DNA from: Flavobacteriaceae bacterium
GTDB lineage: Bacteria > Bacteroidota > Bacteroidia > Flavobacteriales > Flavobacteriaceae
Direction: 5' to 3'
Assembly (NCBI GenBank): GCA_965224465.1
Contig: OZ245049.1
Span: 1,020,001-1,052,000 of the forward strand
DNA length: 32,000 bases
Numbering within the stretch: position 1 is the first letter of the stretch; each line of letters begins with the position of its first letter. Positions 1 through 27,367 of the stretch are shown here, piece by piece. Made by a program: the position numbers and the translations under genes. The notes below the pieces were generated by a model. That model worked only from the letters and a program-made list of their open reading frames with translations. It had not been told where the DNA came from and ran no database searches.

Positions 1-118
1 CTAAGAATAGTAGCGGATTTCAAGGTACGAACCTTTCAATTTATCACTAAACTTTATTCAAAGATACTCACTTTTAATTTAGCAAAAAAACCGCTATTAT
101 TTTTATACATTGTTAGTC
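1..118. repeat. Short inter-cassette element S0 (attC-like imperfect inverted repeat), cut by the window edge
   Basis: Arms 1-16 (ctaagaatagtagcgg) and 91-106 (ccgctattatttttat) are complementary apart from two G:T positions. There is an internal hairpin at 22-35 (aaggt-acga-acctt). The architecture matches element S1 at 4851-5050. GTTAG at 112-116 overlaps the RT stop codon. Confidence 0.5.
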
Positions 119-1999
119 ATTCGCCTTATTTTTATTCCGTTCTAATACTTGATAATAGTAACTAAAAGGTTTGTCATAAAATATGATTTGTTTTTTTCTT
201 TCTATGTCGTCTTCATCATCATCTTCCTTTTCTTTTTCAAGATTTTTGACAGACTTTAACAAGTCGTAATATAATTTACTACGATTCCTATCTAACTGTT
301 TAATTTGTAATATTGAATCTTTATTTAGACTTAATTCCTTAAAACCATTTTTCCAACACATATCTGTTGAAACTTCTTCAAAATTGTTTAACCCAATTCT
401 TCCAACTGACATTCCAATTAATCTATTTATTGCAGATTCAATAACATATCCTTTGAATTTTCTTTGTCCAAGTTCGATTGCTTTTTCAATTTCATTTACT
501 ATCTTTTTCTGCTTTTTAAGTTCTTTTTCTAATGAATTTTTTCTAACACGAATGTTTCCTTTATGATGAATTTCATATCCAACAAAACTAATCCAAGGAA
601 AGCCATTATTATGGATTGAATCCCATTTATATGCTCCTTTTGATTTAGTGTGCCAAAATGGTTTAATTGTAAATTCGGTTTTACTTATCTTCTCTGTTAA
701 TTCATATACAAACTTATGTGGAACTAATTTCAACTCTTTTAAACAGTTTTTGTAAATGTTTTTTGCTTTTTCACATATTTTTTTATCCTTATGTATTATT
801 AGCATATCATCACAAAATCGAATATAAAAGACTTCTGTTTTTAACAATTCTTTATCAGCCTCATTTAGTACAATGTTTGCAATTAATCCCGATAAAGCAC
901 CACCTTGTGGCACTCCAATTCTTTCTTCCTCAATGTTTGAATAGTATTTTAATTCTATTAATCGATTCTTAATCCAACCAAACTCGCCATTTGGTATTTT
1001 ATAACTATCCCAATATTTAGTATTATTTGATAATGGAATATTTATATTAAAAGCATAACAGTTTAAATATTCATTAAAAATATGTTTCACAATTTTGAAA
1101 TCAAAATCTGGATTATCTTCTTTTGATTTATCTATTAAATTGTTAAATAGTTTTTTTACGATTTTATGATTAACTGAATCGTAAAATTTTTCCATATCAC
1201 ATTCAACAACAAACAATGGTTCATAGTTGTTTTTCTTTTGTAATTCAATAACGTTTTTTATACAATCGTGATGTGAAATCGTAGATGTTCCTTCCTTATT
1301 TTTTTTTGAACGAAAAGCGTATGAAGAATCTTGAAAATATCCATCAAATAAATTAGTTAGAAATTTATTTGATATACTTAAAATAATTCTTTCTTTCAAT
1401 GAAAACATTGAAATAGGGCGACATTTATTAGTTTCAGTTTTAGAAATTAATTCCTCCTTTAGTTTTGGGAAAACAAGAGGCCTTTTTATATTAAAATCAT
1501 CATTTTCAATTGCTGATTGAATATTTTTTACAAACTTATCAAGTTCTATAAGCCAATTTACTTTAGGGTCTTTTTTTCGATAAAGTTTTATTGTTTTTAA
1601 TATTGAATAAAAATTTTTATCATTTGAAGTTAATTTTTCAGTTCCATCTCTATTCATTCTTGATTTGCAACCAAGTTTTACCCATTTTTTTCGTGGTGGA
1701 AGAATTTTACTTAATTGATTGTTTAACTCAAATTGATATTTTGAAAATTCATTTTCATCAACTATTTTTTGTTCTTTGAGATGGTAATTATATTTATCAG
1801 AATCAGTTAAAAGATGAATTAGGTGTTTTTTATTTCGAGTTTTAGCAATTTTAACACGTAATTTACAAATGTGAGTTACAATTGCTCTTTCTGTAAAATA
1901 TGTAGAAAATTCTTTCATAATATAAAATAAGAAAAAGGGTTCCTGTAAAGTGCTTACGCACATATTGACAAAGATACTGACATATAAATGTCGAGCCAT
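113..1999 (-). CDS. Reverse transcriptase (RNA-directed DNA polymerase), family not assignable by eye (group-II-like, retron or UG/Abi type)
   Basis: 628-aa ORF with the RT motif series: FVVECDMEKFYDSVNH (motif 3), GVPQGGALSGLIANIVLNEAD (motif 4), YIRFCDDMLII (YxDD-type catalytic motif) and ISFVGYEI (motif 7). It has a long N-terminal extension and an acidic C-terminal tail. An alternative start at 1918 (MKEFSTYF) is possible. Confidence 0.85.
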   Translation of the reverse strand: MARHLYVSIFVNMCVSTLQEPFFLFYIMKEFSTYFTERAIVTHICKLRVKIAKTRNKKHLIHLLTDSDKYNYHLKEQKIVDENEFSKYQFELNNQLSKILPPRKKWVKLGCKSRMNRDGTEKLTSNDKNFYSILKTIKLYRKKDPKVNWLIELDKFVKNIQSAIENDDFNIKRPLVFPKLKEELISKTETNKCRPISMFSLKERIILSISNKFLTNLFDGYFQDSSYAFRSKKNKEGTSTISHHDCIKNVIELQKKNNYEPLFVVECDMEKFYDSVNHKIVKKLFNNLIDKSKEDNPDFDFKIVKHIFNEYLNCYAFNINIPLSNNTKYWDSYKIPNGEFGWIKNRLIELKYYSNIEEERIGVPQGGALSGLIANIVLNEADKELLKTEVFYIRFCDDMLIIHKDKKICEKAKNIYKNCLKELKLVPHKFVYELTEKISKTEFTIKPFWHTKSKGAYKWDSIHNNGFPWISFVGYEIHHKGNIRVRKNSLEKELKKQKKIVNEIEKAIELGQRKFKGYVIESAINRLIGMSVGRIGLNNFEEVSTDMCWKNGFKELSLNKDSILQIKQLDRNRSKLYYDLLKSVKNLEKEKEDDDEDDIERKKQIIFYDKPFSYYYQVLERNKNKAND

Positions 2000-2061
2000 T
2001 TTTTTTAAGTCCTCTGGTAAATGACTAAAAAATACCGTTGAAGAGGATGATACTTACGAGA

Positions 2062-3090
2062 TTAACCCGCCTCAGAACCCTTTTTCTTCTGTTGTTTAGT
2101 TAAATATCCTTTTTCGTTTGCTAAATGTATTATTGAATTAAATTTTATTGAACCATTTCTTGATTCATAACAGTTTTCTAAAAAATTAGCACAATTAGTT
2201 TCATCATACTTCTCTTTATCGATTGCACTAAATCGTTTAAAATAGTTCAATCCAATATCATAGGTGAATGAATTAGAAATAGACATTGCAACCTTGTACC
2301 AATTTTCATACGAAGTTGTTATAGATGAATTTTTACGTTCTAAAAACTTAATTATTGCACCTATTGTTTTTCTATCACTTTGATTGTTCCTATTTAGTGG
2401 GTTAAGTAGCGAATCTTTGCTACTAACACTTTTTACTTTTATTGTTTTTTCTTTTTTTTCAGTATTCAGTACTAATAGGTCAGATTCTGAAATTTCAAAT
2501 GATTGATAATTTTCTTTTAAAATCAATTCATTATCATAAGAAAAAAAACACAAACGTGTTGTATCGCTTCCACTTTTGTCTAATTCAATATCATAATTAC
2601 TCTTAAAATAGTCAGAAAGTTTTTTGAAAGCACTTCTGTGTGCTAAATCAAGATTCTCATTATTTAGTTCAAATTTATATTGAATAGAAATCAACCCTTT
2701 TATTCCTTTATTAGATGGCGATTTCCAAAAAGTAAAAATTAAAGGGTCTTTATCTAAAAAGCACCAAACTTTTTTTAATTCCTCATTTTCAAGTTTGTCA
2801 ATGTCAATTACAATAATTGAATTATATTTTTTTAATTGTTCTTTTCTTCTTTTGTTTTCGAATGTTGCACAAAATGTTATTGCTGGTAATTTTACTTTTT
2901 GTTTGTCGTATTCGGCTTTATTTCCGTTTTTAAGATGAGTTCTTAAATTCTCAATTTTTGATTTATATATATCAGATTTTATTAGTCTTAAAGATTCTTG
3001 AATTGTAATCTCTTTCGATAATGTTGCCCAAGTGTTTTCTTGATACGATACGTTATATTTTAATATTTTTTTTATTGAATTCAAGAGCAT
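2062..3090 (-). CDS. AEP-superfamily primase-like protein (BT4734/VirE_N-like N-terminus plus PriCT-like C-terminus)
   Basis: 342-aa ORF lying 62 nt upstream of the RT on the same strand. It has an IIVIDIDKL acidic DxD-type motif preceded by LPAITFCATF, as in BT4734-like primase N-domains. The C-terminal WYKVAMSISNSF...GLNYFKRFS...YDETNCANFLENCY resembles PriCT. Recognised by motif only. Confidence 0.5.
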   Translation of the reverse strand: MLLNSIKKILKYNVSYQENTWATLSKEITIQESLRLIKSDIYKSKIENLRTHLKNGNKAEYDKQKVKLPAITFCATFENKRRKEQLKKYNSIIVIDIDKLENEELKKVWCFLDKDPLIFTFWKSPSNKGIKGLISIQYKFELNNENLDLAHRSAFKKLSDYFKSNYDIELDKSGSDTTRLCFFSYDNELILKENYQSFEISESDLLVLNTEKKEKTIKVKSVSSKDSLLNPLNRNNQSDRKTIGAIIKFLERKNSSITTSYENWYKVAMSISNSFTYDIGLNYFKRFSAIDKEKYDETNCANFLENCYESRNGSIKFNSIIHLANEKGYLTKQQKKKGSEAG

Positions 3091-3120
3091 TTTTTTTAGA
3101 GTATCGTTTTTGGGTGATGG

Positions 3121-3812
3121 CTAACACCTCTATATCCACAATAGCAACCCTAAAGTTGACGTTATTTCCGCAATACCTACAAGCACTACAGAGGCTGTTA
3201 AATTTATAGTTTAAAGGTAGTTAATAATTTAAATCACCAGTATATAACTGGCGTATTTATTAACAAAAATTTACTGTAAAGTGTTACATGCATACTTTGT
3301 AGTATTTGCAGTACTTGTAGGGGTTTAATTGGTGCTAATTCCTTAGGGAACGGTGTGTTTTTTAGCTGTATGATTTATTTTAACAGTATTATCACTTCTA
3401 AAAACAGGAATACTGGGTGTATTTTACGCTTAAAAAGTCTTCGTATTCAAACAATCGTTTTAACCGTTTAAAACGGTTATTTTAAGGACAAGAATAAAAA
3501 TTAAGTCTTCTTTTTAAAAAAAATATTGCCGTCAGGTACTAATAACAGAATAAAAAAACAAACATAGCCACGTAAAGGGAAACGCATGCCAAAACACTAC
3601 TGACCAACACTTATCCGTATCAAAAAAACAGTAAAAACATATTCCACAAAAGAGCGTGAGAGCAAATAACCTAAAAACAGGTGGTATCTATTAAGGTCTT
3701 TGTCTATAGCCTCTTAATTAATTGCACGTAATCCCGACAGAAACAGGTTTTGAACCGGTGTAGTCAACAGGATGTTCATGCTGGGCGCTACGCACCGCAC
3801 GAACACTTAGTT
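3121..3812. repeat. Inter-cassette module A (variant: conserved L part 3121-3171, unique insert 3172-3535, conserved R part 3536-3812)
   Basis: The ends align with modules B-E: ctaacacc..gttgacgttatttccg on the left, and gtactaata...cacgaacacttagtt on the right. The middle has no counterpart in the other copies. Confidence 0.85.
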
Positions 3813-3824
3813 ATTGCCAAAACG

Positions 3825-4844
3825 TTACTTATTTTGTTTAACACCTTTAACATATTCTATTCGTTTAATCACAGTTCCGTTTGCATTATATTCTTTCCAA
3901 ATCCCCTCTTTTTTCATTTTGTTTTTTTCTCCCGAATAATATAGTTTACCTGTGTTATCGTAATATTTAAAATAGTAACTATCTCTACTCTCATTGTAAT
4001 TAACAACTTCTTGCAATGTTCCGTTAGTTCTAAAAAGGGTATATTTTGTACGTTTTTCATTTTTAATAAAGAATTCAAGTTTAGACATTGATTTAGTCTC
4101 GGAGAAGTAGTGTTTCCACTGATTAGCCATTTCTCCATTTAAATATTCTCCTGTTTTTTTAATATTCCCATTGGAAAAATAACTTACCCATATTCCATTT
4201 TTCTCATTATTCAAATAAACACCAGCACTTGATAGCTTTCCATTTTCATGATAATACGCACATTTTCCATGTTTTCTACCTTTCGAATACTTAATTTTCA
4301 TTTGCAGTGTGCCATCAGAATATTCAAATATCCATACTCCTTCACGATAATTCTCTTTATTTATTCCTTTATAAAAAAAAGAACCGCTTTGATGATAACT
4401 TATATTGACCCCGTGACAAACTCCAGATTTAAAATTTTCAACACCTCTAATCTCGCCATTTTCTCTAAAATCCTTCCATTCTCCGTGTTTTTTTCCTTTT
4501 TTGTAGTTCCCTATAGAACTTAAGTAATTTCCAAAATAATATATTTTCCATTCTCCATCTTTTAGATCATTAGCATAGTTCCCTTCACTTTCTTTTTTCC
4601 CTGTATTTCGTTTATAATAAATCCAATGACCCTTCCTTCTTCCATTGGAGTAATTCCCTTCTTTAATTTTATTCCCAGTATCTTGGTTAAAATAAACCCA
4701 ATGACCTTCTTTATTCCCATTGGAATAAACACCCTTATTTTCAATTATTTCGGACACTTCAATTGATTCAATTTCTTCTTGGGAAAAGGAATTAATTGAA
4801 AACAAGAAAATAATAATATTTGTAATTAAGTTAATTTTTTTCAT
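3825..4844 (-). CDS. Secreted MORN-repeat-variant (YwqK-like) protein
   Basis: N-terminal signal peptide MKKINLITNIIIFLFSINSFSQ, followed by repeated G.W..YY.NG......G.Y.NG...G.W units typical of the MORN variant / YwqK antitoxin-like family. Confidence 0.7.
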   Translation of the reverse strand: MKKINLITNIIIFLFSINSFSQEEIESIEVSEIIENKGVYSNGNKEGHWVYFNQDTGNKIKEGNYSNGRRKGHWIYYKRNTGKKESEGNYANDLKDGEWKIYYFGNYLSSIGNYKKGKKHGEWKDFRENGEIRGVENFKSGVCHGVNISYHQSGSFFYKGINKENYREGVWIFEYSDGTLQMKIKYSKGRKHGKCAYYHENGKLSSAGVYLNNEKNGIWVSYFSNGNIKKTGEYLNGEMANQWKHYFSETKSMSKLEFFIKNEKRTKYTLFRTNGTLQEVVNYNESRDSYYFKYYDNTGKLYYSGEKNKMKKEGIWKEYNANGTVIKRIEYVKGVKQNK

Positions 4845-4850
4845 AATGTT

Positions 4851-5050
4851 GCCAACGTTTGGCTAAGCGCAGTGCGAATTAGGAAGTACGGACTTTCAAG
4901 TTTGCAATTAGCTAAATCTTTTTATTTTGTTTTATCTTTTTTTCCTAAAACCAAATCAAAGGGTTTACCTTCGATGAGACTTCGTGTTGAAGGTCTTTGT
5001 TAAAAATACTGAATTTTTAATTAAGCATCAAACCCGCATTGCGTTTAGTT
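4851..5050. repeat. Short inter-cassette element S1 (attC-like imperfect inverted repeat)
   Basis: Arms 4863-4876 (ctaagcgcagtgcg) and 5035-5048 (cgcattgcgtttag) match at 12 of 14 positions, and both mismatches are G:T on the plus strand. Internal hairpin at 4884-4895 (aagt-acgg-actt). A small perfect hairpin gccaa-cgt-ttggc sits at 4851-4863. The element fills the whole gap between ORFs 5069..5779 and 3825..4844. Confidence 0.6.
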
Positions 5051-5068
5051 GCTGTCGTAGCCAGTGCT

Positions 5069-5779
5069 TTATTTTTCATAGTAATAAGTACGTGTCAAAT
5101 TGTAACTAACTATTCTATTATTTTCTTTTCCCCATTTCGCAAAGTCAGAATGACTCGATTTTTTCCATTCGACATAGTTTTCTACAATTTCCAAATCTTC
5201 ATTCAACACTTTCGTCCAATGTTCTTTTCGATTGGTGTCAATCAATTTGGAAATTTGTTCCTTAATTTTTTTAGCAAGTTTTAAATCGTCTGTCGCATTT
5301 CCAATGTATTCTTCTGGTAGGTGATGAATAGAGTAATAAATATTGAAAGTCCACCAGTTTAAAATTGTTTCTCTTGCTAAATCATCTTTAGGATTTAATT
5401 CAATTGACTTAAATAGGTGTTCTTCGCTTCTGTAATATTTTCCGAACCAAAGAAACGGTCGATTGTCAATTATCTCAATCTCACACCAATTTTCTAAAGT
5501 CGGTTTTATCAATCTATCACTAAGTGGTTGAGGAAATGGTCCATAACCTGCTTCTTGAATATTCTCGAATAAAGGAAAAAGAAATTTAACAAACTCAATT
5601 TTTTGGTCAATTGTCCATTCCTGAGTTGATTTTATAAATTTGTCAAGCTTTTTAAACGCTTGTTTTCTCAGACCTTTCTCTCTATCAAAACAGTAGTCGG
5701 CATAGTATTTCCACTCGGAATTTACCGATGCTGCATTTGCAATAGTCATTAGAGCGATATTTTGGTCTTTAGTAATCAT
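5069..5779 (-). CDS. Hypothetical protein (cassette cargo; possibly immunity-protein-like)
   Basis: 236-aa ORF that fills the cassette between module B and element S1. I recognise no motif in it. Confidence 0.6.
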   Translation of the reverse strand: MITKDQNIALMTIANAASVNSEWKYYADYCFDREKGLRKQAFKKLDKFIKSTQEWTIDQKIEFVKFLFPLFENIQEAGYGPFPQPLSDRLIKPTLENWCEIEIIDNRPFLWFGKYYRSEEHLFKSIELNPKDDLARETILNWWTFNIYYSIHHLPEEYIGNATDDLKLAKKIKEQISKLIDTNRKEHWTKVLNEDLEIVENYVEWKKSSHSDFAKWGKENNRIVSYNLTRTYYYEK

Positions 5780-5796
5780 TTTTTACGCATTGGATA

Positions 5797-6429
5797 CTTC
5801 CCCACGTATATCATCAATAAACTTCTAAAACTTGACGTTATTTCCGTTATGTCTATAATAGTTTCGGGGTATGTGTTGTTTTATTGTTAAAAGTATTCAA
5901 ATTTTTTAAATTTTCAAGCGTTCCACGATTTTTTAATTGTTAATTTCGATGGTCTTGGTGTAAATCTCTGTGATTTTTGTAGAAACAGATCCTAAGCACA
6001 ATTACAATCCAAAATACCCAATATAAATAGTTTAATTCACGTTCTAACGTTGTTAAAAAACAGAACAACTGTAAGATAGAAAAACTCAAAACCGTCTATC
6101 TATTTAGCGGAAGAGGCTCACACCTACTTATTGGTTACAACAACCAATAAAGCATGTACTAATAAGCAAAAAAAATAAACGTAGCCACGTAATGGGAAAC
6201 GCATTCTTAAACCCTGCTGACCAATACTTATCCGTATCTAAAAACGGCGCAAACCAATTCCTACAAAAGAGCGTGAGAGAAAATGATCTAAAAATAGGTG
6301 GTATCTATTAAGGTCTTTGTCGATAGCCTCTTAATTAATTACACGTAATCCCAACAGAAACAGGTTTTGAACTGGTGTAGTCAACAGGATGTTCATGCTG
6401 GGCGCTACGCACCGCACGAACACTTAGTT
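5797..6429. repeat. Inter-cassette module B (~630 bp)
   Basis: Near-identical by eye to 7387-8014, 8911-9540 and 11107-11753. Components: L part with CGTTAT-ttc-CGTTAT (5836-5850), truncated MITE head (about 5998-6066), palindrome 6128-6150, R part 6156-6429 with hairpin 6389-6423. Confidence 0.9.
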
Positions 6430-6454
6430 GTTGTGTGCTGGCTTTTTCTCACTT

Positions 6455-6919
6455 TTATTCATTAAAATAGTTTTCTGGCCATAAATAATCCGGCAAATGG
6501 TTTTTTATCATTTCAACCGCACTATCATACCCTCTTGCTTCTAATTCTCTGACAAAAAATGGCCAAGGTGGAATATTACTATTATAAGAATTTGATGAAG
6601 AGGTTGACATTCCTCCACCTTGTGAAGTAGATAATCCACCATATTGTGAAGTAGAAAGTCCACCATACTGTGAAGTAGATAATCCACCGTATTGTGAAGT
6701 CGAAAGCCCTCCATATTGTGAAGTTGACATTCCTCCATATTGAGAGGTTGACATTCCTCCATATTGTGATGTTGAAAGACCCCCATATTGAGATGTGGAC
6801 ATTCCTCCGTATTGGGAAGTTGACATTCCTCCATATTGCGAAGTAGATAATCCACCTCTTTGGCTTGTACTTAAATTTCTAGGCCAAGTTCTTAAATTTT
6901 TTATTATTGGTCTGCTCAT
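6455..6919 (-). CDS. Low-complexity STSQYGG-repeat protein with a unique C-terminal domain
   Basis: 154-aa ORF with 11 tandem octapeptides [LM]STSQ[YRG]GG, then a non-repetitive C-terminus PPWPFFVRELEARGYDSAVEMIKNHLPDYLWPENYFNE. It lies 12 nt downstream of ORF 6931..7353 in the same cassette. Confidence 0.65.
   Translation of the reverse strand: MSRPIIKNLRTWPRNLSTSQRGGLSTSQYGGMSTSQYGGMSTSQYGGLSTSQYGGMSTSQYGGMSTSQYGGLSTSQYGGLSTSQYGGLSTSQYGGLSTSQGGGMSTSSSNSYNSNIPPWPFFVRELEARGYDSAVEMIKNHLPDYLWPENYFNE
6599..6874 (-). repeat. 24-bp tandem coding repeat (about 11.5 units) inside ORF 6455..6919
   Basis: Period-24 units such as gaagtagataatccaccatattgt, gaagtcgaaagccctccatattgt and gatgtggacattcctccgtattgg differ mainly at codon third positions. 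Confidence 0.9.
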
Positions 6920-6930
6920 AATTATAGTAT

Positions 6931-7353
6931 TTATTCGTAGTTCAGTTTTGTGTTTTCGGTAATATGCAAAATATCAGGTTGGTCGCATTTTACAGCACCT
7001 CTTTTCAACATTCTTTCATAAAATCCATCTGTTAAATCAACTAAAAACACATCAAATTTAAAGTCTAATGATGACAAATAAATAATTGAAATCATATTTT
7101 CCCCAATATTGTAATGTTTTAAATGAAATGGAATGAAGATGTTGGATATATAAATTTGTTCGTTATTTTCATTAATTCCAATTCGTATGAACATTATATT
7201 TTCTCCGTCTGGTTTGTTTTCAATTCCATTTATTTGAATAGTAGAATCATAAAAACTTGATGAAAAACTATAATCAGGATTCAACTTTTGATTTAAGTAT
7301 TTTTCAAGATTATTTATAATAATAATAATAATATCTTCTTTTTTTTCCTCCAT
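6931..7353 (-). CDS. Hypothetical protein (first gene of a two-gene cassette)
   Basis: 140-aa ORF immediately downstream of module C on the cargo strand. No recognisable motif. Confidence 0.55.
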   Translation of the reverse strand: MEEKKEDIIIIIINNLEKYLNQKLNPDYSFSSSFYDSTIQINGIENKPDGENIMFIRIGINENNEQIYISNIFIPFHLKHYNIGENMISIIYLSSLDFKFDVFLVDLTDGFYERMLKRGAVKCDQPDILHITENTKLNYE

Positions 7354-7386
7354 AGTTTAATGTCAGTTCATTTTTTCCGCTTGCAC

Positions 7387-8014
7387 ATAACACCCATATA
7401 TCCTCAATAAACTTCCAAAACTTGACGTTATTTCCGTTATGTCTATAATAGTTATGTGTTGTTTTATTGTTAAAAGTATTCAAATTTTTTAAATTTTCAA
7501 GCGGTACACGATTTATTTATTGTTAATTTCTATGGTCTTGGTGTAAATCTCTGTGGTTTTTGGAGAAACAGATCCTAAGCACAATTACAATCCAAAATAC
7601 CCAATATAAATAGTTTAATTCACGTTCTAACGTTGTTAAAAAACAGAACAACTGTAAGATAGAAAAACTCAAAACCGTCTATCTATTTAGCGGAAGAGAC
7701 TCACACCTACTTATTGGTTGCAACGAATAAAAGCATGTACTAATAACCGAACAAAAAAAAATAAACGTAGCCACGTAATGGGAAACGCATTCTTAAACCC
7801 TGCTGACCAATACTTATCCGTATCTAAAAACAGTAAAAACATATCCCACAAAAGAGCGTGAGAGAAAATGACCTAAAAATAGGTGGTACCTATTAAGGTC
7901 TTTGTCGATAGCCTCTTAATAAACTTCGCGCAATCCCCATAGTATCATCTTTTGAGCCGGTATAGTCAACACTATGTTCATGCTGGGTGCTACGCACCGC
8001 ACGAACACTTAGTT
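7387..8014. repeat. Inter-cassette module C (~630 bp)
   Basis: Aligns with modules B, D and E. It carries the C/E-type variant block in the R part and lacks the tcggggt heptamer present in the other copies. Hairpin at 7974-8008. Confidence 0.9.
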
Positions 8015-8026
8015 ATTGGCAGTAGT

Positions 8027-8803
8027 TTAGTTTATTGTAAAGCTTTCGTCTCCAAATTCAAATATTGTTTTAATTCCATTCTTCATAAGTTCTCTAGCTA
8101 AATCAAACGATTGTTTGATAGCCTTAGGTTTAAAGGAAAAATAGACTTCTGCACTTCCATAGAAAACAGTTTTTAAAGCAATTAATCCATCTTTGTCAGG
8201 CTTCATAAATTGGTAAGTAAAAACCTCTCTGTTTTCTCCTTTTATTATTTGATTAAGCGCTTTTTCACTATTAAACATTTTCTTTATTATTTTTACCATT
8301 GACACGAAATCCTTGTCCTCATACTCAAGAAAATCCATTATAACTGCAATATCTCCTTCGAAAGTGTTCTTGAATTCATAGTAATATAATCCATAGGCAA
8401 TATGTTCAAAACAGTCTATTAAACGGTCAAAGTTAGGTTGACCAATTGACGCAATTTTGGTTTTGTTATTACTAGATTTAATAGTTTTAAATTCATGATT
8501 TCTTAGTACTTGATCACTAATAAAAGTTTCGCTTTTCCTTTTTAAAGCTCGAGGAATTTTTGTCGTGTGAAGCATCTGTCCGACGAAGTTATTGTTAATT
8601 AGTCCTGCCAAGGAGAACATCAAAAATTCGTCGTCCGATGATTTTTTAGAATTATGTAAATCACAAGATGGGACTTTTATTAACCCTTTTCTAAAATCTA
8701 TACCTTTGATATCTTTTTTCTCAGGAAATAGACATCTTGGGGGAACGTGTTCTTTTGAAACTGCAAGATTGTCACAGGCATAGCATTTAGATTTTTCTTT
8801 CAT
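8027..8803 (-). CDS. Hypothetical protein with an N-terminal HNH-like zinc-finger nuclease motif
   Basis: The N-terminus reads CYACDN-x7-EHVPPRCLF...VPSCDLHNSKKS, a CxxC...H...CxxHN arrangement as in HNH/His-Me finger nucleases. The remaining ~190 aa are unrecognised. Confidence 0.4.
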   Translation of the reverse strand: MKEKSKCYACDNLAVSKEHVPPRCLFPEKKDIKGIDFRKGLIKVPSCDLHNSKKSSDDEFLMFSLAGLINNNFVGQMLHTTKIPRALKRKSETFISDQVLRNHEFKTIKSSNNKTKIASIGQPNFDRLIDCFEHIAYGLYYYEFKNTFEGDIAVIMDFLEYEDKDFVSMVKIIKKMFNSEKALNQIIKGENREVFTYQFMKPDKDGLIALKTVFYGSAEVYFSFKPKAIKQSFDLARELMKNGIKTIFEFGDESFTIN

Positions 8804-8910
8804 CTTTTTTATTGTATTTCGACTAACGTAGATTTTGTTTTTAAAACATCTTCAAAATTCCGTCTGTTAACTCGTGGAGCTAATCAAATTCTGATACGGG
8901 TAATTACTGC

Positions 8911-9540
8911 CAACACCCGTATATCATCAATAATCTCCTAAAACTTGACGTTATTTCCGTTATGTCTATAATAATTTTGGGGTATGTGTTGTTTTATTGT
9001 TAAAAGTATTCAAATTTTTTAAATTTTCAAGCGTTCCACGATTTTTTTATTGTTAATTTCGATGGTCTTGGTGTAAATCTCTGTGATTTTTGTAGAAACA
9101 GATCATAAGCACAATTACAATCCAAAATACCCAATATAAATAGTTTAATTCACGTTCTAACGTTGTTAAAAACAGACCGATTGTTAAATAGGGAAACTCA
9201 AAACAGCCTATCTGTTTAGCGGAAGAGAACCTCCTGCCTATTGGTTGCAACCAATAAAAGCATGTACTAACTAACCGAACAAAAAAATAAACGTAACCAC
9301 GTAATGGGAAACGCATTCTTAAACCCTGCTCACCAATACTTATCCGTATCTAAAAACGGTGCAAACCAATTCCTACAAAAGAGCGTGAGAGCAAACAACC
9401 TAAAAACAGGTGGTATCTATTAAGGTCTTTGTCGATAGCCTCTTAATTAATTACACGCATCCCCATAGTAACAGATTTTGAACCAGTATAGTCAACACTG
9501 TGTTCATGCTGGGCGCTGCGCACCTCACGAACACTTAGTT
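8911..9540. repeat. Inter-cassette module D (~630 bp)
   Basis: Aligns with modules B, C and E. Perfect palindrome tattggttgcaaccaata at 9239-9256. Hairpin at 9500-9534 with changes in the loop, the bulge and the closing pair. Confidence 0.9.
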
Positions 9541-9551
9541 GTTACCACCAA

Positions 9552-11090
9552 TTATTCTTTTTTGAATACTGCTAAATGTTCAAGCATAGATACATTACTA
9601 CCTTTCTTTTTAATTGTTTCAAATATTTTTATTCCACTTGGCAAAGGTTTAAAAAACTCACTTCGATTTGCTTTCAGGCATTTTATAAGTGGAGATTTAA
9701 ATTTTTTCGGAAACGTAATTGTAAAAAGTTCATTGGATTTAATGAAATAAATTAACCAGATTAAGTCATATTGATTGTCTTCAATATTCTTCATTTTCTC
9801 ATTGAATATATTCTCAATTGCATTTTCAATTTTAGTCATTACTGACTTGTTTTTAGAATATTTGTCAACTATTTTTTCAATTATGGCAAGAATTTGAGGG
9901 AATGATTTATATCTGCGTTCTTTCAATAAGAGTAAAAGACTTATTGCTTTCATCAAATTCTTTTCATTAAAATCTAACTTCAAGTTGAAAGTGTTTGAAG
10001 AAAGTTCACTTAAAAATCGGTCAACAACACCAGTTCCTTTATGTTGCTTATCTACTTTTAAAGTTCCTCTCAATGATTTTTCAAATCTATTATAAGAGAT
10101 TTTGTTCTTATAGCGTAATGAAAATTGTTGGTAATCAGCAGTCCACTCTCTGAATAAACCTTCAGGTAATTCACTTACTATTGACTTGTCATCATTTAGT
10201 GACAAATTGAAGTCTTTTAATTTCTTTTGAAGTATTCGTATTATTTTATTTGCGTCTTCTTTTGATTGACAAAGAATTCTATAATCATCTTTAAATCGAA
10301 CTGCTAAAAAATCAATATTTAGTTTATCTATCTCTTTTGAACTTTCTGTATCAACTGCTGTTAAAATTATTTCTGCAATTAAATCCGAAATTGCAGGACC
10401 AATAGGAATTCCATTAGTACAACCATCATTTGCGTATTGTATTAATTTATCCAGTTTTAACCCTAAAAATTTATCGTATGCACTTCTATTTCCACTTGTT
10501 CTAATAACTTTTTTTGTGTGAATTGCCCAAGCAATACTATGCGTGTAAATAGAGGGGTAAAAGTTCTTTATGTCTGTTTTCAGAATGAATTTGTAATTAA
10601 ATGCTTCTGCTACTAAATCATTTTCAGCCATTTCCAAAAACTCATAAATCATTCTTCCTGCTCTTAAATGACCTAATTCTCCTTCATTTTTTTTTGTAAC
10701 TGGAATAGGAAAACTGTAACAATAAATTTTATTTTTTGAGTTAAATAAATGGTCTATTATTAAATCCCATTCGTTCATTAAGTACCAAACTATATCGTGA
10801 TATATTTTTGGTTCAATAATACCAAATGTCCTATCTGTTAACTGTGTCTTAGGAAATGAGACATTTATTAATTCACTTTTTACAACTTCAAATTTCGGAT
10901 TTACTCCCGTAGTATCAACTTCAATGTATGGAGTTGGATTTAAGTCAAATTTTGAGACATTAAATGTTGGAGGAACGATATATTGCTCTGGAAAATAGCC
11001 TTCCTCTAATAACCATTTTGCAACTTTTTCAGTAGGAACACCTTTTAAAAGTTTTTTTGTTTCAAAGAAATGTTTTCTGGGTAGTTGCAT
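9552..11090 (-). CDS. Reverse transcriptase, stand-alone, UG/Abi-like (defence-type) candidate
   Basis: 512-aa ORF with LKTDIKNFYPSIYTHSI (motif 3), NGIPIGPAISDLIAEIIL (motif 4) and AVRFKDDYRILC (xxDD catalytic motif), followed by a ~200-aa helical C-terminal extension. It is not similar to the RT at 113..1999. Confidence 0.8.
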   Translation of the reverse strand: MQLPRKHFFETKKLLKGVPTEKVAKWLLEEGYFPEQYIVPPTFNVSKFDLNPTPYIEVDTTGVNPKFEVVKSELINVSFPKTQLTDRTFGIIEPKIYHDIVWYLMNEWDLIIDHLFNSKNKIYCYSFPIPVTKKNEGELGHLRAGRMIYEFLEMAENDLVAEAFNYKFILKTDIKNFYPSIYTHSIAWAIHTKKVIRTSGNRSAYDKFLGLKLDKLIQYANDGCTNGIPIGPAISDLIAEIILTAVDTESSKEIDKLNIDFLAVRFKDDYRILCQSKEDANKIIRILQKKLKDFNLSLNDDKSIVSELPEGLFREWTADYQQFSLRYKNKISYNRFEKSLRGTLKVDKQHKGTGVVDRFLSELSSNTFNLKLDFNEKNLMKAISLLLLLKERRYKSFPQILAIIEKIVDKYSKNKSVMTKIENAIENIFNEKMKNIEDNQYDLIWLIYFIKSNELFTITFPKKFKSPLIKCLKANRSEFFKPLPSGIKIFETIKKKGSNVSMLEHLAVFKKE

Positions 11091-11106
11091 ATTTTTTCTA
11101 ATTAGT

Positions 11107-11753
11107 GATAACGTTACTGACTATGTATACTCCATATATCATCAATAAACTCCTAAAACTTGGCGTTATTTCCTTTATGTCTATAATAGTTTCGGGGTTT
11201 GTGTTTTTTTATTGTTAAAAGTATTCAAATTTTTTAAATTTTCAAGCGTTCCACGATTTTTTTATTGTTAATTTCGATGGTCTTGGTGTAAATCTCTGTG
11301 ATTTTTGTAGAAACAGATCCTAAGCACAATTACAATCCAAAATACCCAATATAAATAGTTTAATTCACGTTCTAACGTTGTTAAAAAACAGAACGACTGT
11401 AAGACAGGAAAACTCAAAACTGTTTATCTGTTTAGCGGAAGAGGACCTCCTGCCTATTGGTTACAACCAATAAAAGCATGTACTAATAACCGAACAAAAA
11501 AAACGTAGCCACGTAATGGGAAACGCATTCTTAAACCCTGCTGACCAATACTTATCCGTATCTAAAAACGGCACAAACCAATTCCTACGAAAGAGCGTGA
11601 GAGCAAATGACCTAAAAACAGGTAGTATTTATTAAGTTCTTTGTCTATAGCCTCTTAATTAATTACACGCAATCCCCATAGTATCATCTTTTGAGCCGGT
11701 ATAGTCAACACTATGTTCATGCTGGGCGCTACGCACCGCACGAACACTTAGTT
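11107..11753. repeat. Inter-cassette module E (~630 bp)
   Basis: Aligns with modules B-D. The conserved core starts about 11128, and gataac at 11107-11112 is a possible junction. Hairpin at 11713-11747. Confidence 0.9.
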
Positions 11754-11765
11754 ATTGGCAACTGG

Positions 11766-12338
11766 CTATTTTTCACAATTTCTAATTATTGATTTCATCT
11801 TTTTCTCTAACATTTTCCATTCGTTAGAATCCCAATCTTTTAATTTTAAATTATCAAAATATTTTTCTACAGCAGTTTTTAAATCATCTCTAAAATGATT
11901 AGCATCAATAATTTTTTCAGCACGATATAGTTTCCTTTTTTTATCTCTTCTGATTTTCCAACCTCCAGATGTTTCTCCTTGGTGTAAAATACCACATCTA
12001 ATATTTTTATAAAACTCAGTTGGAGTATCATTTCCAGTAAATTCTGAAAACTCAGAAACTCTATTGAAAAATTTGCAAAAAGTATCTGACCCATTTGGAG
12101 TTTTATTCCAGCCACGATAAAAGGATTCAAAAGTTTCAATTAGCAGACAACAATTCGCTAAAATATTAAACCCACTTTTATTTTCTTTTTGTTCTCCTGG
12201 TAAAATATACCTTTGAATTAATCTTCGTTTAATTGATTCGGCTATCTCAACTTTATCAGACTCATTTCTGCTATCAATATTTTTCAGATAGTTACTGATT
12301 CTATATTCTGGGTTTTGGGCTAAAATTAAATCATTCAT
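11766..12338 (-). CDS. Hypothetical protein with an Rx4H (HEPN-like) motif
   Basis: 190-aa ORF, the first cassette of the array. It contains NIRCGILHQGE, which fits the minimal HEPN Rx4-6H pattern. This is weak evidence on its own. Confidence 0.5.
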   Translation of the reverse strand: MNDLILAQNPEYRISNYLKNIDSRNESDKVEIAESIKRRLIQRYILPGEQKENKSGFNILANCCLLIETFESFYRGWNKTPNGSDTFCKFFNRVSEFSEFTGNDTPTEFYKNIRCGILHQGETSGGWKIRRDKKRKLYRAEKIIDANHFRDDLKTAVEKYFDNLKLKDWDSNEWKMLEKKMKSIIRNCEK

Positions 12339-12373
12339 TTTATAGAATAGGTTTTTTTGAATCGTGCTTGCTA

Positions 12374-12705
12374 CTAACCCCCATATATCATCAATAAACT
12401 TCCAAAACTTGACGTTATTTCCGTTATGTGGCTATAATAGTTTCGGGGTATATGTTATTTTATTGTTAAAAGTATTCAAAATTTTTAAATTCTCAAGCGG
12501 TCCAACGATTTTTTTATTGTTAATTTCGAAGGTCTTGATGTAAATCTCTGTGGTTTTTGGATAAGCATGGTCTAAAAGAGATAAATAGTTGTGTTTTACA
12601 TTCTAACGTAGTTAAAAAACAGAACGATAACAAAAACTATCCATCAATTTTTTACCTAGCTATAATTCCATTTCTAAACCATCACTTGGAAATGTATTTA
12701 GTATT
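12374..12705. repeat. Truncated module F (L part and middle only) running into a full-length MITE-like copy
   Basis: 12374-12560 aligns with the L and middle parts of modules B-E. The sequence then continues through the complete MITE tail tttctaaaccatcacttggaaatgtatttagtatt (12671-12705) instead of the R part. Confidence 0.8.
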
Positions 12706-12807
12706 GGTACATGCTAGGCAATTTCCAACATCAGTTCCTCAAAAAAACCTACATAGTTAAACAAGTCACAAAAAACGCCCAAGCACCTCCGTTATAAAAA
12801 TATACCT

Positions 12808-12815
12808 TACATTTG
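12808..12815 (+). promoter_or_regulatory. Candidate Bacteroidota -7 box (TAnnTTTG)
   Basis: TACATTTG ends 7 nt upstream of the ATG at 12822, which would imply a leaderless or very short-leader transcript. Confidence 0.35.
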
Positions 12816-12821
12816 TAGCGC

Positions 12822-13310
12822 ATGAAAATTAATAAAATAGCCATATCGCTTTTATTACTCTTTACCTATACTTTTGGGTTTGCACATAGTGTTATTCCAC
12901 ACTTAGAAGGAGGGCATACTAATTTGCATTCTTCAAACAATAAAATTACAATCCAAAGTCATGTACATCATCAGCATACTCCTGATGAAATAAAAGACAG
13001 CAATCACGAGCATTTATCGCATAATAACCACTTTGACACCAATATAACCGACTATGTATTGTGCGTGTTAAAAACGATGGAACACAAGGATGCCAATTGC
13101 AATGTACAGCAATACATTCCTTTTAAACGCTCTGACAAAAACCTTGGAAATTTAAACAAAACGGCTCTTACAGCCTTATTACATATTATTTTTACAGGTA
13201 TTGAACTGCCTATAAAAAGCATCACTCAGTACTCTAATAATGTACTACTATTCAAGACACCACCTTTATTAAATTCTCCAAACAGAGGCCCTCCTACTGC
13301 AACTTGTTAA
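12822..13310 (+). CDS. His-rich secreted small protein (possible metal-binding accessory of the efflux operon)
   Basis: Signal-peptide-like N-terminus MKINKIAISLLLLFTYTFGFA, then many His residues (HSVIPHLEGGH, HVHHQHTPDE, NHEHLSHNNH). It lies directly upstream of the czcA-like gene. Confidence 0.55.
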   Translation: MKINKIAISLLLLFTYTFGFAHSVIPHLEGGHTNLHSSNNKITIQSHVHHQHTPDEIKDSNHEHLSHNNHFDTNITDYVLCVLKTMEHKDANCNVQQYIPFKRSDKNLGNLNKTALTALLHIIFTGIELPIKSITQYSNNVLLFKTPPLLNSPNRGPPTATC

Positions 13311-13408: not shown

Positions 13409-16400
13409 ATGATTAATAAAATAATCTCATTTTCAATACACAACAAGCTTATCATTGGAATTATGATGATTGCTTGGATTGGAGTCGGTATTTTCTCCAT
13501 GAATCAAGTCCCGGTAGATGCCGTTCCAGACATCACCAATAATCAAGTACAAGTAATTACTACCTCTCCTAACTTAGGCACCGAGGACATTGAGCAATTT
13601 GTTACCTACCCTGTAGAATTGGCGATGGCTAATTTACCTGGGGTTACAGAAATTCGTTCTATTTCCCGTTTTGGATTGTCTGTTGTTACGATCGTTTTTG
13701 AAGACGATATGGGCACCTATTTACCCAGACAATTAGTCTCAGAAAAACTAGGAGTCGTAAAAGACCAAATTCCCGAAAAATTCGGAGCTCCTTTTATGGG
13801 ACCTATCAGTACAGGTCTGGGGGAAATATACCAATACACCCTAGATGTAGCACCCGAATTCTCTGAAAAATACACAGATACCGACTTACGAACTTACCAA
13901 GACTGGATTGTAAAACGTCAAATGGCCATGTTAAAAGGCGTGGTAGAAGTAAATAGTTTTGGAGGACGTGTAAAACAATACGAAGTTGCTCTAGACCCCA
14001 ACCGTCTAAAAAGCATGAATGTGACCATTGCTGAAATTTTTACAGCTTTAGAAACAAACAACGAAAATACAGGAGGCGCATATATAGTAAAAAACCACAA
14101 GGCTAATTTTATTCGAGGAGAAGGCTTGGCACGTTCTATTGAAGACATCAATATGATTGTGGTAAAAACGCAAAATCAAGTTCCTATTCTCATAAAAGAT
14201 GTTGCTGAGGTTCGTATCGGAAATGCAGTACGTTTCGGTTCCTTTACAAAAAACGGAAAAGGAGATGCCGTTGGCGGAATGATATTAATGCTCAAGGGCG
14301 AAAATTCTAACGATGTAATTGCACGTGTTAAAGAACGTATTATCAGTATAGAAAAATCATTACCAGAGGGGATCACTATCAAACCATTTATAGACCGTGC
14401 AGATCTAATTGCCAGAACCACCAGTACTGTTCGTAATAATTTACTGGAAGGTGGATTGATTGTGATTTTTGTATTGGTATTATTTTTAGGAAACTTTAGA
14501 GGAGGATTAATCGTAGCATCTACCATCCCTCTCTCCCTCCTATTTGCCTATATAATGATGAATATATTTGGCGTTTGGTCTAATTTAATGAGTCTTGGAG
14601 CTATTGATTTTGGGATTATAGTAGACGGTGCCGTAATTATTGTAGAAAGTATTGTCTTTTACACGGTGATGCATGTACAAAACACAAAAAAGAAAGTCTT
14701 GTCTCAAGATGATTTAGATGCTATTTCTTATAAATCTTCTAGTAAGATGATGAATGCAGCATTTTTCGGACAATTAATCATCCTTATTGTTTTCCTTCCT
14801 ATTCTTACCCTCCAAGGTGTAGAAGGGAAGATGTTTACCCCCATGGCTATGACCTTTAGTTTTGCGGTTATTGGAGCTATGATTTTATGTTTGACCTATG
14901 TTCCCATGGTTGCAGCTTTATTTATGAGTAAAAAACCATCTGAAAAAAAATTATGGGGAGATAAATTCATCATTTGGTTGAGTAAAAAATACCAGCCACT
15001 ATTAATTGCTGCCTTGAACAAAAAGAAACTAATCCTAGGGATATCTGTTGGACTGTTGATCGCAGCATCCATCACTTTTTCATCGATGGGAGGAGAATTT
15101 ATTCCTAAATTAGACGAAGGAGATATTGCCATGCAAGCCTTATTAAAACCAGGAAGTTCCTTAGAAGAAACAGAAAAAGTATCCACATTAATAGAAAGCA
15201 TCATTTTAAAAAACTTCCCAGAAGTTACAGAGGTTTGCTCTAGAATTGGAGTCGCCGAATTACCTACAGACCCAATGCCAATGGACATTGCAGATATGTT
15301 TGTGATGTTAAAACCAATGGACCAGTGGGTATCTGCAAGTAGCAAACCAGCATTGATAGAGAAAATAAAAGAGAAACTAGCTGTAATACCAGGAGTTAAC
15401 TACGAATTCTCGCAACCCTTAGAACTTCGTTTTAATGAATTGATGACGGGAGTACGACAAGATGTAGCCATCAAATTATTTGGAGAAGACTTAGATATAT
15501 TGGCAACTTATGCGGAGAAAATGGCTCAAATTATTGGCAAAGTAGAAGGCGTTGCAGACATGAAAGTGGAGGCCACAAAGGGACTTCCTCAAATGACAGT
15601 AAAATACGAACGCCAAAAACTAGCGCAATACGGATTGAATGTTCAATATTTGAATACCATTATTAGAACAGCTTTTAGTGGTGAAACAGCTGGACTTATT
15701 TTTGAAGGAGAAAAACGTTTTGACTTGGTGGTCCGATTAAAAAAGGAACACAAACAAAGCATGAACGATTTAAAAAACATGTATGTAGATTTACCCAATG
15801 GAAATCAAATCCCAATTAAGGAAGTAGCACAGATAAGTTATGAATCTGGCCCCATGCAAATTTCTAGAGAAGGCACCAACAGAAGAACGTATGTAGGTAT
15901 TAATGTAAGAGGAAGAGATGTAGAATCGGTAGTAAATGAAATTCAAACAGCATTGGATGCTAAATTAGATTTACCTCCGGGATATTACATTAAATACGGT
16001 GGGACTTTCGAAAATTTAGAACGCGCTAAATCAAGATTAGTCATTGTAGTTCCAATCGCTTTGATCCTTATTTTTGTATTGTTGTTTTTCGCCTTAAAAT
16101 CCTTCAGTCAATCCATTATGATTTATGCTGCCATTCCTTTATCGGCTATTGGTGGAGTTTTTGCACTGTGGATGCGAGACATGCCTTTTAGCATCTCGGC
16201 AGGAATTGGATTTATTGTACTCTTTGGAGTAGCCGTTCTCAATGGTTTGGTACTTATTACGAGTATGAACGATTTAAAACAAGAAGGATTGGGCTTAAGA
16301 GAACGTATTATAAAAGGGACAAAAGAGCGTATTAGACCCATATTCTTAACCGCTTCTACAGACATTCTAGGTTTTTTACCCATGGCGATTTCTAGCTCTG

Positions 16401-20104: not shown

Positions 20105-20259
20105 CTAATACAATCCAAAATGACAGATACAAATAGTTTATTTTACTTCTAGCGTTGTTAAAATATAGAACTATAGCAAGGCTATTCTTAGAATTACCGA
20201 CTGGTTAAAACAAAAAAATAATTTCAATTCTAAACCGACACTTGGAAATACATTTGGTA
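20105..20259 (+). mobile_element. MITE-like dispersed repeat, copy M2
   Basis: Head ctaatacaatccaaaatg...ataaatagttt and tail ttctaaaccgacacttggaaatacatttgg are shared with the copies at 24131, 26303, 27368 and 12560-12705, and with the fragment inside the cassette modules. Confidence 0.6.
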
Positions 20260-20500
20260 TTAACCCCTATACTGATGCGATTTACAAAAATAAATGAGCA
20301 TAAAAAGTAGCATTGATAGAAGTGCAACAATAAAGACCGCTATTCAAGGAATGGTCTTGCATTCTAATGCTCTTTAAAAAACAAGCATTTTCGAAGCTAT
20401 CAGGACACTAAACCCTTCACAAAATATCTATTGGTAAACACTTTTCGTTAAAAAAAACATAATTCTAAAATAAATATTCATTCGTTTTAGAAAATGATTG

Positions 20501-24011: not shown

Positions 24012-24130
24012 TATTTGTTAGATTGATATTTTTAAGATAGTATCCACTTGATTTTTTGATTTTACATAATAATATTGAATTATTTTTTACAAGGTCAACG
24101 TTAAAAATGGGTCGTATCATATTTTTAATG

Positions 24131-24287
24131 CCAATTACAATCCAAAAGGACCGATATAAATAGTTTATTTTACGTTCTAAAGTTCTTGAAAAACAAAATA
24201 ATAGATAAAAATATCCTTCCGTTTTTCGCCTAGCTAAAACAAAAAATAACTCTATTTCTAAACCATCACTAGGAAATGTATTTGGTA
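24131..24287 (+). mobile_element. MITE-like dispersed repeat, copy M3
   Basis: Head ccaattacaatccaaaagg and tail tttctaaaccatcactaggaaatgtatttgg. Same family as M2. Confidence 0.6.
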
Positions 24288-24365
24288 TTACGGCACTCTA
24301 TTTTTACGAATAGATTGTTAAAAAAAATAGAATGCGGTCATCATAAGATTAAATTGGTACTAGCA

Positions 24366-26165: not shown

Positions 26166-26302
26166 CAACTTCACAAGCTGTAAACATAAAAAAGGATAAA
26201 AAAATCAGCATTTATAAAAAAAAATATAGGGTAGTATATACCTTAAATACCATCAGACGAACATTTACTTAAAGGTATAAAAACGGGACCATAATTTCTA
26301 GG

Positions 26303-26428
26303 TTATAACAATTAAATTTCCAAGTGACGGTTTAGAAATGGAAGGATAGCCGTAGCTATCGTTCTATTATTTAACAACGATAAAACATAAAATAAATCAT
26401 TTATATCAGTCATTTTGGATTGTAATTG
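26303..26428 (-). mobile_element. MITE-like dispersed repeat, copy M4 (inverted orientation)
   Basis: The plus strand shows the tail complement aaatttccaagtgacggtttagaaatg and the head complement cattttggattgtaattg. Confidence 0.55.
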
Positions 26429-27360: not shown

Positions 27361-27367
27361 TTTTAAA

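Follow-up and report, generated by a model that had tools for sequence, protein, structure and literature searches.

Two short elements between open reading frames (ORFs), S0 and S1, in a 32,000-nt stretch of a Flavobacteriaceae genome (contig OZ245049.1, positions 1,020,001 to 1,052,000; hereafter the window) are read here as recombination sites of the attC type that terminate mobile cassettes at their 3' ends, and the first part of the window, from position 1 to about 12,700, is read as an integron-like array. The probability of this reading is put at roughly three in four. As judged from the sequence, the assignment to an attC-like class is largely supported, with strong support for S0 and weaker support for S1. 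It is carried by a structure that is conserved and covaries, by the logic of the boxes at the cassette ends, by the horizontal transfer of a unit the size of a cassette, and by a constant polarity relative to the ORFs. The site class differs in detail from canonical attC. The array is AT-rich and its ten ORFs, all on the - strand, are arranged in seven cassettes with repeated junctions (Table 1). Two kinds of junction were present, the short elements S0 and S1 and a repeat of about 650 nt.

The arms of S1, ctaagcgcagtgcg (4863-4876) and cgcattgcgtttag (5035-5048), were found on the + strand exactly where the original prediction had placed them and form twelve Watson-Crick pairs together with G4867·T5044 and G4872·T5039. 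The arms of S0 had been predicted at 1-16 and 91-106; pairing was found for 2-16 with 91-105, comprising thirteen Watson-Crick pairs plus G5·T102 and G10·T97, but C1 and T106 are unpaired. The 5' AAC box and spacer of S0 are outside the window, the start of which falls inside the site, and the complete element is estimated at about 125-130 nt. The stop codon of the RT_UG39 reverse transcriptase gene (113-115) is inside the S0 distal box. When folded as single-stranded DNA, the minimum free energy structure of each element was closed by the described stem, with the + strand at -26.7 kcal/mol for S1 (z -2.93, 0 of 200 shuffles as good) and -10.6 kcal/mol for S0 (z -2.86, 2 of 200 shuffles as good), and the - strands folded more weakly (z -2.12 and -1.90, respectively). 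G·T pairs had been described as the only internal mismatches, which is correct within the 14-bp stem of S1 but not higher up, where two A·C mismatches occur on the + strand. An internal hairpin with an ACGR loop is present in both S1 (4884-4895, aagt-acgg-actt) and S0 (22-35, aaggt-acga-acctt) as described, but it was not predicted by RNAalifold in the wider family below and, by eye, is not kept in the closest homologue of S1 (locus L003). The extra G:C pair in its S0 stem, first taken as a compensatory change, is an insertion.

Related sites were identified by two routes. A 22-mer from the right module of the 650-nt repeat was found in nine metagenome contigs, all with the same layout and the same ORF orientation, and an exact-pattern scan with this 22-mer gave no match in 185,579 genomes. 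One metagenome contig (L005, 1807-1996) carries a third short element with an 18-bp stem in which three pairs are not Watson-Crick. All three are G·T on one and the same strand, and two of them, judged by eye, are in the register of those in S0 and S1, with compensatory changes at five other positions. The second route was the 236-aa cassette protein, for which over 100 homologues were found, most of them in Bacteroidota and many on contigs of very short length, and a genome scan with an alignment of these homologues gave 46 loci. A strand-symmetric scan for stems preceded by an AAC box and followed by a GTT box identified many sites of about 128 nt with one architecture in these loci. Read on the strand opposite to the ORFs, this consists of yyyTAAC, a GkTTyk spacer, an imperfect stem of about 15-20 bp, a variable loop, the 3' arm, 1-6 nt and GTTRyrs. 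Typical sites are 126-134 nt in length, and several others are 150-196 nt.

Eighteen sites from Kaistella, Allomuricauda, two Algoriphagus species, a Saprospiraceae metagenome-assembled genome (MAG), another MAG and a metagenome contig, none of them from the window, were aligned (A3), and RNAalifold predicted 23 pairs, 14 of which had compensatory changes. A covariance model built from this alignment (R1) found 34 sites in nine loci, including the L005 element, and the family was seen in Kaistella, Allomuricauda, Algoriphagus, Saprospiraceae and Marinigracilibium. S0 was matched at window positions 1-107 on the + strand (43.1 bits, E 3.6e-8, model positions 17-122). Because R1 was built from the sites of other genera only, its match places S0 in a family whose definition did not depend on the window, and S0 is an intact member. 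In an alignment of the 34 sites (A4), standard pairs occupied 95.6% of the cells compared to 68.7% in shuffles, change on both sides was seen in 18 of the 23 pairs compared to a shuffle mean of 14.2, and the covariation score was 0.648 compared to 0.164 in shuffles (reached by 0 of 500) and 0.08-0.14 when the partners were slid, although A4 was fitted to the model and these numbers are somewhat inflated by that. Further copies were expected to covary and did so, and the claim that structure is conserved while sequence varies on the strand opposite to the ORFs was borne out, with the model strand opposite to the local ORFs in 34 of 34 sites.

A G·U pair at columns 28-230 was found in 33 of the 34 sites, and G10 of S0 falls there in the R1 alignment; judged by eye, S1 fits this register too. 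Two positionally conserved G·T pairs had been proposed, at the fifth and tenth positions of the stem; the tenth holds across the family, but at the fifth (column 21) only 4 of 34 sites have G·U. A second G·U pair (AACG/TGTT), formed by the bases that follow AAC and precede GTT, occurs in 31 of 34, and AAC and GTT themselves are present in 33 and 34 sites, respectively. The family consensus includes a bulge of 4 nt on the AAC (R') side together with an internal loop of 2x2, and a stem of about 23 bp in all. The + strand-type fold was more stable than its complement in 28 of 36 sites (mean 2.2 kcal/mol).

Long, conserved and covarying stems are also expected of RNA structure, and the elements could be cis-acting RNA, such as 3'-untranslated region (3'-UTR) stabilizers or terminators of the cassette mRNAs or antisense RNA genes, rather than recombination sites. 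Their position directly after stop codons would fit such a role, and each G·T would be G·U in RNA made from the + strand. This explanation is nevertheless considered improbable, as A·C mismatches occupy the conserved positions of the mRNA strand, which forms a weaker fold, no run of T follows the stem on the ORF strand, and the window contained no Rfam match at the gathering score or at E<=5. An RNA function would also leave unexplained the inverted AAC and GTT boxes that bracket the ORFs and the transfer of ORF-plus-site units cut exactly at GTT.

In integrons the crossover parts G from TT, which makes the boxes on either side of an ORF complementary. When the 6 nt that follow GTT in one site were compared across the ORF with the 6 nt that precede AAC in the next, complementarity was seen at a mean of 4.9 of 6 positions and was perfect in 11 of 20 cases, while the controls gave 2.67 for the two ends of the same site and 2.64 for non-adjacent sites. 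Several cassettes of the window follow this pattern as well, and their box pairs are given in Table 1, where the reverse complement of TGATGGCTAA (3115-3124) is TTAGCCATCA. The evidence was most direct in a comparison of a Kaistella locus (L016) with an Allomuricauda locus (L017), which revealed 98.9% identity over exactly 9970-10853 (884 nt in each) and no similarity outside. The shared unit extends from the upstream site's GTT to the next GTT and takes in the 236-aa ORF with its downstream site. Since the identity ends at GTT triplets, the mobile unit is the ORF with the site that follows it, as in integrons, and the inverted GTTnnnnnn/nnnnnnAAC boxes together with this GTT-bounded unit therefore indicate integron-type cassettes. 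The sequence identity implies that one cassette was transferred recently between bacterial families. Breakpoints had been proposed to fall in the CTAA/TTAG ends of the elements; the Kaistella and Allomuricauda unit is indeed bounded at the elements, but the exact point is in the GTT/AAC boxes, a few bases outside those stem ends.

A second alternative is that the elements are selfish palindromic repeats resembling repetitive extragenic palindromic (REP) sequences or miniature inverted-repeat transposable elements (MITEs), which insert between genes and make the array incidental. The elements are imperfect inverted repeats of 100-200 nt, they are intergenic, and related copies occur in many genomes. 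However, the unit that moves between genomes is the ORF with its site and not the site alone, R1 had no match better than E 0.3 outside the array in the window, and the orientation relative to the ORFs was invariant in all 34 sites. Target-site duplications were not apparent by eye, and the flanks are inverted across the ORF. We regard a selfish-repeat origin as highly improbable.

Two further observations were made in the related genomes. An 818-nt contig of Winogradskyella undariae (L015) consists of one 236-aa cassette that ends exactly at a GGCTACAAC box and has a coverage of 213, which suggests that short-read assemblies break at the repeated sites of such arrays. In the Kaistella locus (about 6190-6560), the array start adjoins the 3' end of an apparent tmRNA gene (GGAGGGATTCGAACCCTCGTCC, reverse strand). 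The tmRNA genes are a classical integration hot spot.

Several results weigh against an attC-type reading of the elements, and a number of these concern S1. S1 was not reported by R1 or by an arms-only model (R2) at E<=10; R2 found neither S0 nor S1, probably because the real loops are long insertions. With a length of about 210 nt and a loop of 158 nt, S1 is large, its distal box is GTC and not GTT, and 3 nt are missing at the base of the stem on the 5' side. Although S1 was the only site in 1-13000 to score at least 20 in the strand-symmetric scan (score 24), stems with scores of at least 24 are expected 0.1 times per dinucleotide shuffle of 13 kb, so that S1 taken alone is only moderately, about 10-fold, above chance. 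The box upstream of the S1 cassette is without AAC (GCATTGGATACTTC compared to GCATTGGCTACAAC), and the L003 homologue appeared by eye to have a degraded lower stem. S1 could accordingly be a palindrome that arose by chance in AT-rich spacer DNA, or a remnant without present function, in which case only S0 is a real site. This is considered unlikely given where S1 lies and what it retains. It adjoins the 236-aa gene past the flank GTAGCCAGTGC, and in four other genomes a family site starts at the homologous GTTATAGCCAGTG (the Winogradskyella flank is GTTGTAGCCAGTGC), so that S1 occupies exactly the place of a family site in those genomes, after the conserved flank TAGCCAGTG. When read against the model consensus, S1 keeps the AAC box, the GTTTGG spacer and the 6-nt distance from stem to distal box, and its pairs at the conserved columns of the family are of the frequent types (U-A, A-U and the invariant G·U). 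A relative with 82% identity is located in another array. The best reading of S1 is a site in decay, on a cassette on its way to fixation; S1 is probably an atypical, decayed copy that, from its sequence, would probably no longer be recombination-proficient.

The remaining points on the same side concern attC itself and its enzyme. R1 matched attC(aadA1) weakly (E 0.17 in 3.8 kb), too low for membership; no bulged base was seen by eye in the stems of S0 and S1, and the family is without the attC extrahelical bases; no integron integrase or any recombinase is encoded in the window; no IntI scored above the IntI cut-offs in about 0.8 Mb of related-array neighbourhoods; and the 650-nt repeats form most of the junctions yet have no closing hairpin. 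When IntI1 was used as a phmmer query against every ORF of 150 aa or more in the window and in 60 loci, only two weak generic tyrosine recombinases were returned, both in the Allomuricauda locus. Both are far below the integron-integrase cut-offs, and TIGR02249 scored 47.6 compared to a cut-off of 265; one of the two adjoins a protein that matches only Pfam DUF4138, and the Allomuricauda recombinase was rejected as the integrase.

The attC sites have the end boxes RYYYAAC ... GTTRRRY and a length of about 57-141 nt, and their strand choice is defined by extrahelical bases on the R''-L'' arm, a G in the L box and a T in the spacer. S0 ends in GTTAGTC (112-118) and S1 begins with TGCCAAC (4850-4856) but has the distal box GTCGTAG (5054-5060). 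The family consists of imperfect palindromes with a structure that is kept while the sequence varies, and its cassettes are an ORF plus a 3' site with complementary flanking boxes. Consistent with attC, in which the bottom strand is the one that folds and recombines, were the conserved G·T pairs on the strand opposite to the ORFs, the better fold of this strand in 28 of 36 sites and a polarity as in the bottom strand of attC(aadA1), for which the sequence used was 100% identical to plasmid records. In the bottom strands of attC(aadA1) and attC(dfrA1), AAC is followed by G and GTT is preceded by T, as in 31 of the 34 Bacteroidota sites. Over 1.9 kb of a class 1 integron (L061), the best R1 match was the bottom strand of attC(aadA1) with 9.1 bits (E 0.17) compared to 3.1 bits for the top strand, and the alignment placed the AAC box, spacer and GTT box in register.

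Since no integrase was found in the window or the neighbourhoods, the array is comparable to attC-site clusters that have no integron-integrase (CALIN; PMC4889954). Features shared with CALIN and attC (PMC4889954, PMC9024848) were the RYYYAAC...GTTRRRY end boxes of a structure-conserved imperfect palindrome, the cassette as an ORF plus 3' site, the inverted boxes flanking the ORFs with boundaries at G|TT, the apparent favouring of the strand opposite to the ORFs, the G·T beside the box as in attC(aadA1) and attC(dfrA1), and the absence of an adjacent integrase. The Bacteroidota family differs from attC in having an invariant G·T and the 4-nt AAC-side bulge instead of the extrahelical G and T, and in its longer stem (about 23 bp in all), while the window differs from CALIN in that its sites share the array with 650-nt junction repeats without hairpins. 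A single complete integron was reported in Bacteroidota by IntegronFinder (PMC9024848).

The rAID-1 arrays of Bacteroidales, called reminiscent of integrons by their authors (Ross et al. 2019, 10.1101/471110; PMC12247911), are from the same phylum, consist likewise of co-directional short genes with repetitive intergenic sequences, and often break assemblies, as the arrays described here seem to do. Two or more such genes of low G+C content are expected in rAID-1, and the AT-rich window array has its ten ORFs, all on the - strand, with repeated junctions. The rAID-1 marker is a XerD-like tyrosine recombinase with >44% identity to BF9343_RS08045 at the array 5' end (10.1101/471110; PMC12247911); this defining recombinase is absent from the window, where the array 5' end has a His-rich ORF and an efflux operon. 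In a Dysgonomonas locus, a 440-aa tyrosine recombinase is directly upstream of, and co-directional with, an array holding a homologue of the 236-aa protein, which is the rAID-1 layout (10.1101/471110), but this array showed no hairpin sites. Tracing the recombinase through the Dysgonomonas enzyme was abandoned, as its family has 1,871 members and a relative with 49% identity is an ordinary integrative-element integrase. Sedentary chromosomal integrons with anti-phage cassettes (10.1101/2024.07.02.601686) share with the window a chromosomal array, near-identical repeated junctions and cargo that includes defence-type reverse transcriptases. Those integrons, in Vibrio and relatives, have IntIA, attI and repeats of about 125 nt, whereas in the window the homogeneous repeat has a length of 650 nt and there is no adjacent integrase. 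The cargo of the window array as a whole (two defence-type reverse transcriptases and proteins with MORN and ALTTAQ repeats) resembles that of chromosomal integrons (10.1101/2024.07.02.601686).

The 650-nt repeat is present as four full copies, one hybrid and one left half at the array end, and it makes up most junctions of the window array, where the AAC and GTT/ATT boxes that bound it are the ones found at the short sites. In the metagenome variants the outer 100 nt or so on each side are conserved and the middle varies between copies, for a total of 350-650 nt. The end near the stop of the preceding ORF has a small hairpin with an AAC-like and a GTT box on its flanks (AGTCAAC-ACTAT-GTTCATGC...GCACGAAC-ACTTA-GTTATTG). 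A Marinigracilibium sequence (L025, 5490-5580) seems by eye to repeat the motifs of this end, CAATAACTAAG...GTTGAC...CCGG...TACTATGG.GATT, and has no BLAST similarity to it. The other end carries short direct repeats and alone forms the first junction of the array, in the position of attI; a first junction made of only the left half was also found in a metagenome locus (L002). It can be hypothesized that the 650-nt repeat is a fusion of a short attC-like hairpin and an attI-like module. Two other identities were tried and rejected. As a giant hairpin site, the ends of the repeat were not consistently better paired than shuffles (z 0 to -2.7), and as a group II intron, an OMEGA/HEARO RNA or a tRNA-linked island repeat it gave nothing by Rfam (no match at the gathering score or at E<=5) or ARAGORN (no tRNA or tmRNA).

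The middle of the 650-nt repeat includes part of a dispersed repeat of about 170 nt (for example 5999-6100). Copies of this dispersed repeat were mostly upstream of genes in sense orientation, and it holds the AAC-box-like motif TTCTAACGTTGTT. Two inverted copies flank genes for a DUF6873 protein and a radical SAM protein (24446-26129).

The cassette cargo includes two defence-type reverse transcriptase systems, RT_UG14 (9552-11090) and RT_UG39 with a primase-like partner (113-3090). The latter was identified by PADLOC as one known defence reverse transcriptase (DRT) gene pair, RT_UG39 plus VirE-PriCT2. The family of the 236-aa cassette protein is widespread in Bacteroidota by homologue search, and at other loci its ORF is accompanied by a family site immediately after the stop codon. 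At least nine tandem 24-nt units at 6576-6887, within the ORF at 6455-6919, encode the ALTTAQ repeats. A perfect 14-bp stem, S2, lies between the primase-like gene and RT_UG39, just upstream of RT_UG39 and inside the gene pair, and the DNA fold of 1929-2088 had a z of -3.14. S2 did not match R1 or R2 and has no AAC box, and it was rejected as a third cassette site on the absence of this box and its place inside a known two-gene DRT pair; box complementarity, moreover, works only if RT_UG39 and VirE-PriCT2 form one cassette. S2 is probably not a cassette junction and may be a candidate non-coding RNA of the RT_UG39 defence system.

The array 5' end (12339-12830) is followed by the His-rich ORF and a CzcA-type efflux operon, and from 12,822 on ordinary genes are found on both strands (the His-rich protein, a CzcA-OEP fusion, HlyD, TetR, MoxR and others). 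The His-rich ORF of 162 aa (12822-13310) precedes the fusion ORF, which encodes 1473 aa (13409-17830) and combines an AcrB/CzcA-type transporter with an outer-membrane efflux protein (OEP) domain. Further along, two tandem DUF805 genes on the - strand (26880-27284 and 27473-27841) are duplicated together with their upstream regions (76-88% identity).

Table 1. Positions of the short elements, junction repeats, cassette genes and box pairs in the window
Feature	Coordinates	Strand	Details
S0, attC-like site downstream (ORF sense) of the RT_UG39 cassette	1-118	+	
S0 parts	5' arm 2-16; loop 17-90; 3' arm 91-105; spacer 106-111; distal box 112-118	+	distal box GTTAGTC
S1, divergent attC-like site downstream (ORF sense) of the 236-aa cassette	4850-5060	+	
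S1 left part	AAC box 4850-4856; spacer 4857-4862; 5' arm 4863-4876	+	box TGCCAAC; spacer GTTTGG
S1 right part	loop 4877-5034; 3' arm 5035-5048; spacer 5049-5053; distal box 5054-5060	+	distal box GTCGTAG
S2, perfect 14-bp stem	1929-1942 / 2075-2088		arms AAGAAAAAGGGTTC / GAACCCTTTTTCTT; about 130 nt enclosed
650-nt junction repeat (L-type, approximate length), full and hybrid copies	3125-3813, 5800-6433, 7391-8015, 8914-9543, 11112-11754		
Array end	12372-12630		left 260 nt or so of the 650-nt repeat only; TACTAAC box 12372-12378
Dispersed intergenic repeat of about 170 nt	12560-12710, 20105-20266, 24124-24291	+	
Dispersed intergenic repeat of about 170 nt	26302-26428, 27359-27443	-	
RT_UG39 reverse transcriptase	113-1918 or 113-1999	-	PADLOC E 4.6e-201
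RT-associated VirE-PriCT2, BT4734/PriCT primase-like protein	2062-3090	-	PADLOC E 4.5e-128; Pfam
Two-gene cassette, RT_UG39 + VirE-PriCT2	113-3124	-	boxes TTAGTCATTC 113-122 and TGATGGCTAA 3115-3124
MORN-repeat cassette ORF	3825-4844	-	Pfam MORN_2; flanks TTGCCAAAAC 3814-3823 and GTTGCCAAC 4848-4856
236-aa cassette ORF	5069-5779	-	
ALTTAQ-repeat protein + 140-aa ORF	6455-7353	-	
258-aa ORF	8027-8803	-	
Second reverse transcriptase, RT_UG14	9552-11090	-	PADLOC E 1.4e-216
190-aa ORF	11766-12338	-	
Box pair	113-122 / 3115-3124		TTAGTCATTC / TGATGGCTAA; two RT-system genes counted as one cassette
Box pair	6431-6439 / 7383-7391		GTTGTGTGC / GCACATAAC
Box pair	8015-8024 / 8905-8914		ATTGGCAGTA / TACTGCCAAC
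Box pair	9541-9555 / 11100-11112		GTTACCACCAATTAT / AATTAGTGATAAC

For the function of the sites we infer a course of events in which the single + strand, opposite to the ORFs and equivalent to the attC bottom strand, would fold in vivo into the hairpin, and a tyrosine recombinase encoded elsewhere would bind the paired boxes and the stem. Strand exchange would occur at AA|C (G|TT on the other strand), and ORF-plus-site units would be excised as circles and inserted at another site.

To our knowledge, integrons are regarded as rare in Bacteroidota, and we know of no described recombination site or mechanism for the rAID arrays of gut Bacteroidales. A tentative and rather doubtful proposal is that Bacteroidota have an integron-like system of their own without a classical IntI, with hairpin sites of about 128 nt, an unlinked tyrosine recombinase, exchange between orders and the 650-nt repeat as a second junction. 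In such a system, sites throughout the phylum would be marked by the invariant G·T and the AAC-side bulge instead of extrahelical bases, the unlinked recombinase could be of the rAID type, and defence and immunity cassettes would be exchanged between orders, while in the array described here the 650-nt junction, combining a small hairpin module and an attI-like direct-repeat module, would serve most cassettes. A structured site family with clear boundaries, and with cassette transfer between families, offers a model with which further arrays can be searched for and a concrete substrate with which the recombinase could be identified. The analysis also shows movement of defence reverse transcriptases and immunity-type genes in the form of cassettes in Bacteroidota.

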